Below, one piece after another: positions 6,239 to 6,388 of a stretch of DNA of 29,446 nucleotides (within the stretch, counting starts at the first letter, position 1; each line of letters starts with the position of its first letter). Source of the stretch: an uncultured archaeon (GTDB lineage Archaea > Asgardarchaeota > Jordiarchaeia > Jordiarchaeales > Jordiarchaeaceae). The stretch lies in assembly GCA_964510585.1 (NCBI GenBank), contig CAZECW010000177.1, positions 1-29,446 of the forward strand, written 5' to 3'. The position numbers were made by a program, and so were the translations under genes. The notes under the pieces were generated by a model. That model worked only from the letters and a program-made list of their open reading frames with translations, was not told the origin of the DNA and made no database searches.

Positions 6239-6388
6239 GCCGGGTTAGTCTAGCGGCGAGGCGCCGGACAGTTTTTTGCCCGGAATGCAGATTCGGTATT
6301 TCTAGCTTGACTCAAGCTTGGGCCGAAACCAGGGTTCAAAATCTTTGGAGGTTTGTCTCCGGTGAGGAAAATCCCTGACCCGGCTCCA
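6239..6388 (+). tRNA. tRNA-Cys(GCA) with three introns (6270-6285 at 32/33, about 6300-6327 at 46/47, 6341-6371 at 59/60) and encoded CCA
   Basis: The spliced product GCCGGGT-TA-GTCT-AGCGGCG-AGGC-G-CCGGA-CT-GCA-GA-TTCGG-TATAC-CAGGG-TTCAAAT-CCCTG-ACCCGGC-T-CCA is a 75-nt cloverleaf with the U73 Cys discriminator. Each intron forms a BHB or relaxed HBh' motif. Confidence 0.9.

Follow-up and report, generated by a model that had tools for sequence, protein, structure and literature searches.

We report here that a 150-nt segment (positions 6239-6388, forward strand) of the window, the 29,446-nt stretch of archaeal DNA that was analyzed as a whole, is very probably (about 90% in our estimate) a tRNA-Cys(GCA) gene that is functional and present once in the genome of an Asgard archaeon of the Freyarchaeia type; three bulge-helix-bulge (BHB) introns would be spliced out of it. 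The gene is laid out as four exons separated by introns of 16, 28 and 31 nt (Table 1), which together account for 75 of its 150 nt, and the evidence for this reading lies in its anatomy and motif geometry, in the conservation of its exons, in the presence and absence of introns among relatives and in the enzyme genes carried by the genome. A first-pass annotation of the same DNA had proposed this span, the half-intron composition and the three intron lengths, all of which are confirmed by the coordinates and by the ARAGORN call on the spliced product.

Several elements of a tRNA can be read directly in the unspliced sequence, namely the acceptor stem (GCCGGGU/ACCCGGC), the D arm (GUCU/AGGC), the T stem (CAGGG/CCCUG), U73 and an encoded CCA, and the two anticodon-stem strands, CCGGA and UUCGG, are split apart by an insert. 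With all four exons contiguous and in order within 150 nt, the locus is neither a split nor a permuted tRNA gene. In silico removal of the three introns yields a 75-nt product that is called tRNA-Cys(GCA) by ARAGORN, and in which G1:C72, G10:C25, G15, G34-C35-A36, G37, A47, A59 and U73 are all predicted to be present. This is a complete match to the set of identity nucleotides listed for the CysRS and SepRS of Methanococcus maripaludis (PMC2330236). In an alignment of four congeners, a nearly invariant block upstream of the gene is followed by a variable spacer (6183-6235); the TATA-like element within this block, about 70 nt upstream of the gene, is likely to be an archaeal promoter, which would imply a 5' leader of roughly 45-50 nt. 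The sigma-70 promoter scan embodies a bacterial model and is inapplicable to an archaeal promoter at this position.

Table 1. Coordinates in the window of the tRNA-Cys gene parts, the conserved upstream block and the two genes that follow.
Feature	Position	Strand	Description
Conserved upstream block	6135-6181	+	TATA-like element TATAAATA at 6162-6169
Exon 1	6239-6269	+	tRNA positions 1-32: acceptor 5' strand, D arm, anticodon-stem 5' strand, C32
Intron 1	6270-6285	+	16 nt, position 32/33, relaxed HBh'
Exon 2	6286-6299	+	U33, anticodon GCA, G37, anticodon-stem 3' strand, U44-U46
Intron 2	6300-6327	+	28 nt, variable loop 46/47, relaxed HBh'
Exon 3	6328-6340	+	13 nt: A47, C48, T-stem 5' strand, T-loop U54-A59
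Intron 3	6341-6371	+	31 nt, position 59/60, hBHBh'
Exon 4	6372-6388	+	U60, T-stem 3' strand, acceptor 3' strand, discriminator U73, encoded CCA
DUF2100 protein, probable SepCysE homologue	6548-7183	+	Pfam PF09873, E 2.7e-19
SepCysS (Sep-tRNA:Cys-tRNA synthase)	7143-8375	+	NCBIfam TIGR02539, 457 bits vs cut-off 365

The rule for placing the cuts was set first on the canonical 37/38 introns of the sister-family orthologues, in which nt 32-35 (CUGC) pair with an intronic GCAG and both cuts fall two nt beyond the resulting 4-bp helix. A BHB motif was defined as two 3-nt bulges with a 4-bp helix between them and cuts two nt past the helix, in either the strict (hBHBh') or a relaxed (HBh' or hBH) form, and all three inserts of the window gene have this geometry. 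In intron 1, the exonic CCGG at positions 27-30 pairs over 4/4 positions with an intronic CCGG, with AC↓A and AA↓U as bulges, and a 2-bp inner helix but no outer helix makes the motif HBh'. Intron 2 is of the same relaxed class: its central helix joins C41-U44 (CGGU) to an intronic GCCG (4/4 pairs), the outer helix is missing and the inner helix is a long AGCUUG/CAAGCU hairpin. A full hBHBh' is seen for intron 3, where the central helix UUCA/GGAA contains an A57-G mismatch (3/4 pairs), the 5-bp T stem serves as the outer helix and the inner hairpin has nine pairs if one U-U mismatch is allowed. The tRNA-Cys identity, intron positions, helices (CCGG/CCGG and CGGU/GCCG) and motif classes given in the first-pass annotation, including the A-G mismatch in the third motif, are thus borne out.

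Taken alone, the relaxed BHB motif is nevertheless weak: a lenient filter lets through 78 of the approximately 5,400 pairs of exon end and intron end available within the gene, and ARAGORN admits 82 other spliced products, whose isotypes include Leu, Ser, Thr and Pro. Enumeration by BHB filter and ARAGORN was therefore dropped as an unbiased test of the boundaries, being too permissive, and homology was used instead, so that the case rests on comparison with relatives. Our orthologue set comprises five genomes of the same genus, three metagenome contigs and four genomes of the sister family, and the nine genome orthologues (five same-genus and four sister-family) all reduce to a collinear 75-nt tRNA-Cys. 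In 4/5 same-genus genomes the gene recurs with these three introns and an identity of about 90%. The sister-family orthologues were located by synteny upstream of SepCysS; a DNA-similarity search recovered none of them, and matches to a 5'-exon pattern that had been considered as sister-family orthologues were rejected as coding sequence. Compact tRNA-Cys(GCA) genes are found in other Asgard families when the spliced product is used as a BLAST query, and a gap-tolerant alignment of the unspliced window gene to compact Asgard tRNA-Cys, made without use of the motif, returns three inserts in the same places.

Across these orthologues, six intron sites are used in total, of which 59/60 is the only one common to all nine, and the 29 intron instances at the six sites all fit the geometry with at least 3/4 central pairs each. 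The 59/60 introns of the sister family are 17-22 nt long, with hairpin sequences unrelated to those of the window's family and a perfect UUCA/UGAA central helix; the geometry of the 59/60 intron is kept between the families. The remaining sites are distributed by family: three sister-family genomes have introns at 15/16, 23/24, 37/38 and 59/60 and the fourth at 23/24 and 59/60, with sites 23/24 and 37/38 uninterrupted in the window's family, and introns at 32/33 and 46/47 are found only in the window's family, both sites being uninterrupted in the sister family. The 32/33 intron, 14-16 nt in length, is present in 8/8 sequences of the window's family and absent from the four sister-family orthologues. 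A D-loop intron at 15/16, with a similar 3' end (CGUGGUGGAUAG), is carried by the complete congener genome G005 and by metagenome contig L073 (6137-6318), and is absent from the window's own genome (G000) as well as from G002, G003, G004, L064 and L140. A gapped junction pattern run over the metagenome contigs gave 102 loci, three of them real orthologues, with no intron-less or spliced form among the 102; a single junction match with a gap of 0 in metagenome contigs proved to be a chance match. Within the family, covariation counts (5 and 8 sequences) are not significant, as the values observed are attained by shuffled controls too and the central helices show no variation.

The same comparison bears on where exactly the gene is cut and which amino acid it specifies. 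An alternative register for intron 2 (6299-6328, 30 nt, helix UCGG/CCGA) is structurally possible and self-consistent, has four Watson-Crick pairs that survive in L073, where the U44-G pair is lost, and would give a 3-nt variable loop in which A47 is deleted; intron 1 could likewise be placed at 26/27, giving A32. Only the boundaries chosen here, however, produce C32, the 5-nt variable loop UAUAC, A47 and collinearity with sister-family and compact Asgard tRNA-Cys. The same UAUAC is found in the compact tRNA-Cys of G025 (Asgard), it is identical at 4/5 positions to the uninterrupted CAUAC of the sister family, and our register is further favored because its product keeps the full PMC2330236 identity set including A47. 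As for isotype, the breadth of the 82 ARAGORN-accepted products and a published call of the G005 orthologue as Ser(AGA) with a score of 25.2 would allow another assignment, but the AGA lies within the D-loop intron, which is absent from the window's genome, and the CAA of a putative tRNA-Leu lies in the intron 2 hairpin loop, which varies among congeners, against an invariant UGCAGA; U73 in turn fits Cys. A real gene with other boundaries or another isotype is thus highly improbable, and we retain the tRNA-Cys(GCA) with the boundaries of Table 1.

Nearly as improbable, in our view, is that introns 1 and 3 are removed and intron 2 is retained as the oversized variable arm of a class II-like tRNA-Cys. 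The insert does sit in the variable loop and does hold a stable hairpin, but retention leaves unexplained both the exact BHB geometry and the GCCG strand, which is kept in 7/8 sequences and for which a variable arm offers no reason. Known class II variable arms are far shorter than the 33 nt that the arm would here attain, and simple variable loops of 4-5 nt are the form seen in the sister family and in other Asgard tRNA-Cys. On the other side, in a 2026 preprint a canonical motif accompanies only 21% of those variable-region inserts that tRNAscan-SE missed (10.64898/2026.10.13.758758). We treat intron 2 as an intron like the other two.

The pattern of substitution in the genus is that of a gene under constraint. 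Among five congeners, 2/72 exon columns vary compared with 23/75 in introns and 14/20 in the flanks, both varying exon columns belong to the compensatory 7:66 pair (U7 changes together with A66), and exons 2 and 3 are invariant in all eight sequences of the window's family; in two congeners U73 is followed by UCA instead of CCA. These data argue against a degenerate copy whose working counterpart lies elsewhere or on unassembled DNA, as do the conservation of the promoter-like block upstream and the maintenance of the position beside SepCysS in both families. Genome-wide tRNA calls (nine by ARAGORN, seven by Infernal) include no second tRNA-Cys, none turns up in BLAST when the spliced product or any of seven Asgard tRNA-Cys is used as query, and a genome scan for uninterrupted GCA anticodon arms accompanied by a matching acceptor stem is equally negative; candidate second loci raised by BLAST or the anticodon-arm scan are all coding sequence. 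The intronless tRNA-Cys elsewhere that the first-pass annotation named as grounds for doubt was therefore found by none of the three approaches, and the complete congener genome likewise holds this locus only. No copies of the three introns were found elsewhere in the genome. A pseudogene draws its plausibility from the state of the assembly (3.78 Mb in 217 contigs, 96% complete), on whose unassembled part a second tRNA-Cys could lie, and from the fact that standard finders see only 7-9 tRNAs in this genome, so that other hidden genes are certain to exist; with exons almost invariant as introns and flanks drift, and with no second tRNA-Cys-like sequence in either genome, we hold it to be a most improbable explanation, and consider the single-copy gene to be functional.

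The enzymes that splicing and charging of such a precursor would call for are encoded in the genome. Of two EndA paralogues, the alpha subunit (192 aa, L001:1468-2046, reverse strand) aligns without gaps to the catalytic subunit of Aeropyrum pernix (3P1Z_B, E 2.8e-45), the His of its GIDHAP motif falling on the A. pernix catalytic His, at which the mutant entry 3AJV has Ala. Its loop IRKPKS aligns, again without gaps, to VEKPRG of 3P1Z_B, which places a Lys on K44, a residue whose role in the Crenarchaea-specific loop (L1/CSL) has been described (PMC5829648). It is this specificity loop by which crenarchaeal enzymes become able to cut relaxed motifs. The second paralogue (198 aa, L002:1192-1788, forward strand, equal to G000:C126:19612-20208) keeps both Pfam EndA domains and has the homotetrameric Methanocaldococcus jannaschii enzyme as its best match, with Thr in place of the catalytic H125 of the latter, and for this reason is probably a structural subunit. 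A catalytic and a His-less EndA together correspond to an (alpha-beta)2 layout as predicted from sequence, in agreement with the broad-specificity EndA that the first-pass annotation had anticipated and whose subunit architecture it had proposed to check. Such an enzyme is what cleavage would depend on, given the missing outer helices of introns 1 and 2 and the A-G mismatch of intron 3.

RtcB is also present (578 bits). The rtcB gene itself carries a strict BHB intron of 30 nt (G000:C58:3762-3791) that contains a TGA and whose removal restores the reading frame; it separates ...LPD from AHQGYG... in the active-site motif. For charging, CysRS (606 bits) is encoded on contig C60 and SepRS (539 bits) on contig C187, and SepCysS, for whose substrate this tRNA would be the scaffold, follows the tRNA gene in the window, with a DUF2100 gene between the two. 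The product of the latter also has a weak match (E 0.005) to PDB 3wkr_C, the SepCysE structure of M. jannaschii (MJ1481). The order tRNA-Cys, SepCysE-like DUF2100 gene, SepCysS is kept in the window's family and in 4/5 sister-family genomes searched (L053, L054, L056, L057).

From these genes and motifs we infer a course of events for transcription start, cleavage and ligation, and charging, with the order of splicing inferred likewise. Transcription would probably begin from the conserved TATA-like element and include a leader. For each intron, the 4-bp helix would form between exon nucleotides that immediately precede the 5' cut and intron nucleotides that immediately precede the 3' cut, a placement that puts both cuts two nt past the helix. 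An (alpha-beta)2-type EndA, its catalytic subunit carrying the specificity loop, would then cut at six sites, RtcB would join the four exons, and processing of the ends would give a 75-nt tRNA, to be charged either by CysRS or by the successive action of SepRS and SepCysS, the gene for the latter lying close to that for tRNA-Cys.

How the precursor folds before cleavage was examined by computation. A fold in which all three BHB motifs are present at once is possible (-53.2 kcal/mol), and the minimum-energy fold computed for 37 °C (-59.1 kcal/mol) differs from it: the CCGGA at the intron 1 3' end is there paired to the true anticodon-stem 3' strand. This 3' end repeats the exonic CCGGA, and could thereby provide a decoy anticodon arm, CCGGA-AUGCAGA-UUCGG (window 6264-6296). 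The motif geometry bears out the earlier suggestion that introns 1 and 2 each take one strand of the anticodon stem; the further statement that the cloverleaf cannot form until both are removed goes too far, as the anticodon stem competes with two BHB folds and nothing forbids it. Given the sequestration of the anticodon-stem strands by introns 1 and 2 and the decoy arm in the minimum-energy fold, folding of the precursor might enforce a splicing pathway, in the form of ordered, co-transcriptional splicing and perhaps also of a checkpoint that tunes the supply of the sole tRNA-Cys together with the adjoining SepCysE-SepCysS genes, a scheme that we consider unlikely.

The first-pass annotation also warned that standard scans may miss or miscall this gene, and both prove to be the case. 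ARAGORN reports no tRNA at this locus when run on the window, Rfam at its gathering score yields none in the window either, and the tRNA model of Rfam gives no match at 6150-6480 even with permissive filters and E<=10; the miscall is that of the G005 orthologue, for which tRNAscan-SE gave Ser(AGA). Most tRNA genes of the window's genome are in fact hidden from standard finders. The few that are found number only seven (Infernal) to nine (ARAGORN), and several of the ARAGORN calls look like artefacts (a Glu with a 564-nt intron, a Ser with a 2238-nt intron and a Phe(AAA)). At the level of the class, the Rfam tRNA model recovers 5-12 tRNAs in eleven genomes, compared with 8-45 (mostly >20) in the other Asgard genomes sampled.

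The miscalled orthologue is found in a published genome. G005 is a single-contig congener, and its tRNAs have the same coordinates as in the published complete Freyarchaeota genome, which places the window's organism in the genus of that genome. Its orthologue (G005:C1:1326639-1326821, or L007:1456-1638) has Cys identity and four BHB introns, at 15/16, 32/33, 46/47 and 59/60, the first of them 33 nt long with a GUCU/GGAU central helix. Supplementary Data 4 of the published study (PMC11291895) lists 1326639-1326821 as "Ser AGA", with one intron according to tRNAscan-SE and three according to R2DT, and its 38 Freyarchaeota rows contain no tRNA-Cys, Phe, His or Glu. The detail that is new here is thus that the gene tabulated as Ser(AGA) in the published genome is, on the reading of its sequence given above, a four-intron tRNA-Cys.

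Set against what is known, the window gene illustrates well a kind that is not new, as heavily interrupted tRNA genes have already been published for the lineage. In Freyarchaeia/Jordarchaeia and Atabeyarchaeia, multi-intron tRNAs have been described that resemble the window gene in lineage, in non-canonical intron positions, in BHB-compatible boundaries and in a two-subunit EndA. Valentin-Alvarado et al. (2024; PMC11291895) found introns in 92-95% of tRNA genes there and several introns in over half; the published Freyarchaeota table differs from our reading in that the Cys isotype is missing and the orthologue appears as Ser(AGA), here a Cys with four introns. Goswami et al. (2026 preprint; 10.64898/2026.10.13.758758) count 2.42 inserts per gene in Freyrarchaeaceae, with up to five in one gene, and report enrichment of BHB boundaries and a two-subunit EndA in most genomes; splicing is demonstrated for none of their newly identified inserts, some of which are perhaps not introns, and genes undetected by tRNAscan-SE are invisible to their census. 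An (alpha-beta)2 EndA with the L1/CSL loop had been reported for Asgard archaea by Kaneta et al. (2018; PMC5829648). With multi-intron tRNAs of the lineage and the Asgard EndA both on record, a claim of novelty fails, and the view that triple-intron tRNAs are rare and known mainly from Thermoproteales is out of date, since in this lineage they are not rare (PMC11291895; 10.64898/2026.10.13.758758).

Two further known systems offer partial parallels. The multi-intron tRNAs of Thermoproteales (Sugahara et al.) likewise have as many as three BHB introns in one gene, at non-canonical sites that include 59/60, and an (alpha-beta)2 EndA equipped with the Crenarchaea-specific loop cleaves their relaxed HBh' motifs; motif and EndA layout are the same as those predicted here. 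Thermoproteales belong to another phylum, however, and their intron families are common to several tRNAs, consistent with transposition (10.64898/2026.10.13.758758), in contrast to the window introns with their lack of genomic copies. The second parallel concerns gene neighborhood: Mukai et al. (2017; PMC5424206) described a Bathyarchaeota BA2 operon of tRNA-Cys together with SepCysSn, SepCysS and SepRS, as well as clade VII SepCysS loci. Like the SepCysS-linked tRNA-Cys of that study, the window tRNA-Cys lies directly upstream of a SepCysE-like gene and SepCysS, but unlike in those loci the linked tRNA here has three introns and SepRS is located on another contig (C187).

Our understanding of how such introns work is unchanged by this gene. 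It does fill a gap in the published record, where the reference complete Freyarchaeota genome is without an annotated tRNA-Cys, and with the orthologue having been tabulated as Ser(AGA), the apparently incomplete tRNA sets of these eukaryote relatives are, at least in part, artefacts of annotation. Intron gain and loss have been named as an open problem by the 2026 preprint (10.64898/2026.10.13.758758), and the nine orthologues with their six intron sites, together with a D-loop intron that is variable within a single genus, make tRNA-Cys of these archaea a compact case in which to study it.
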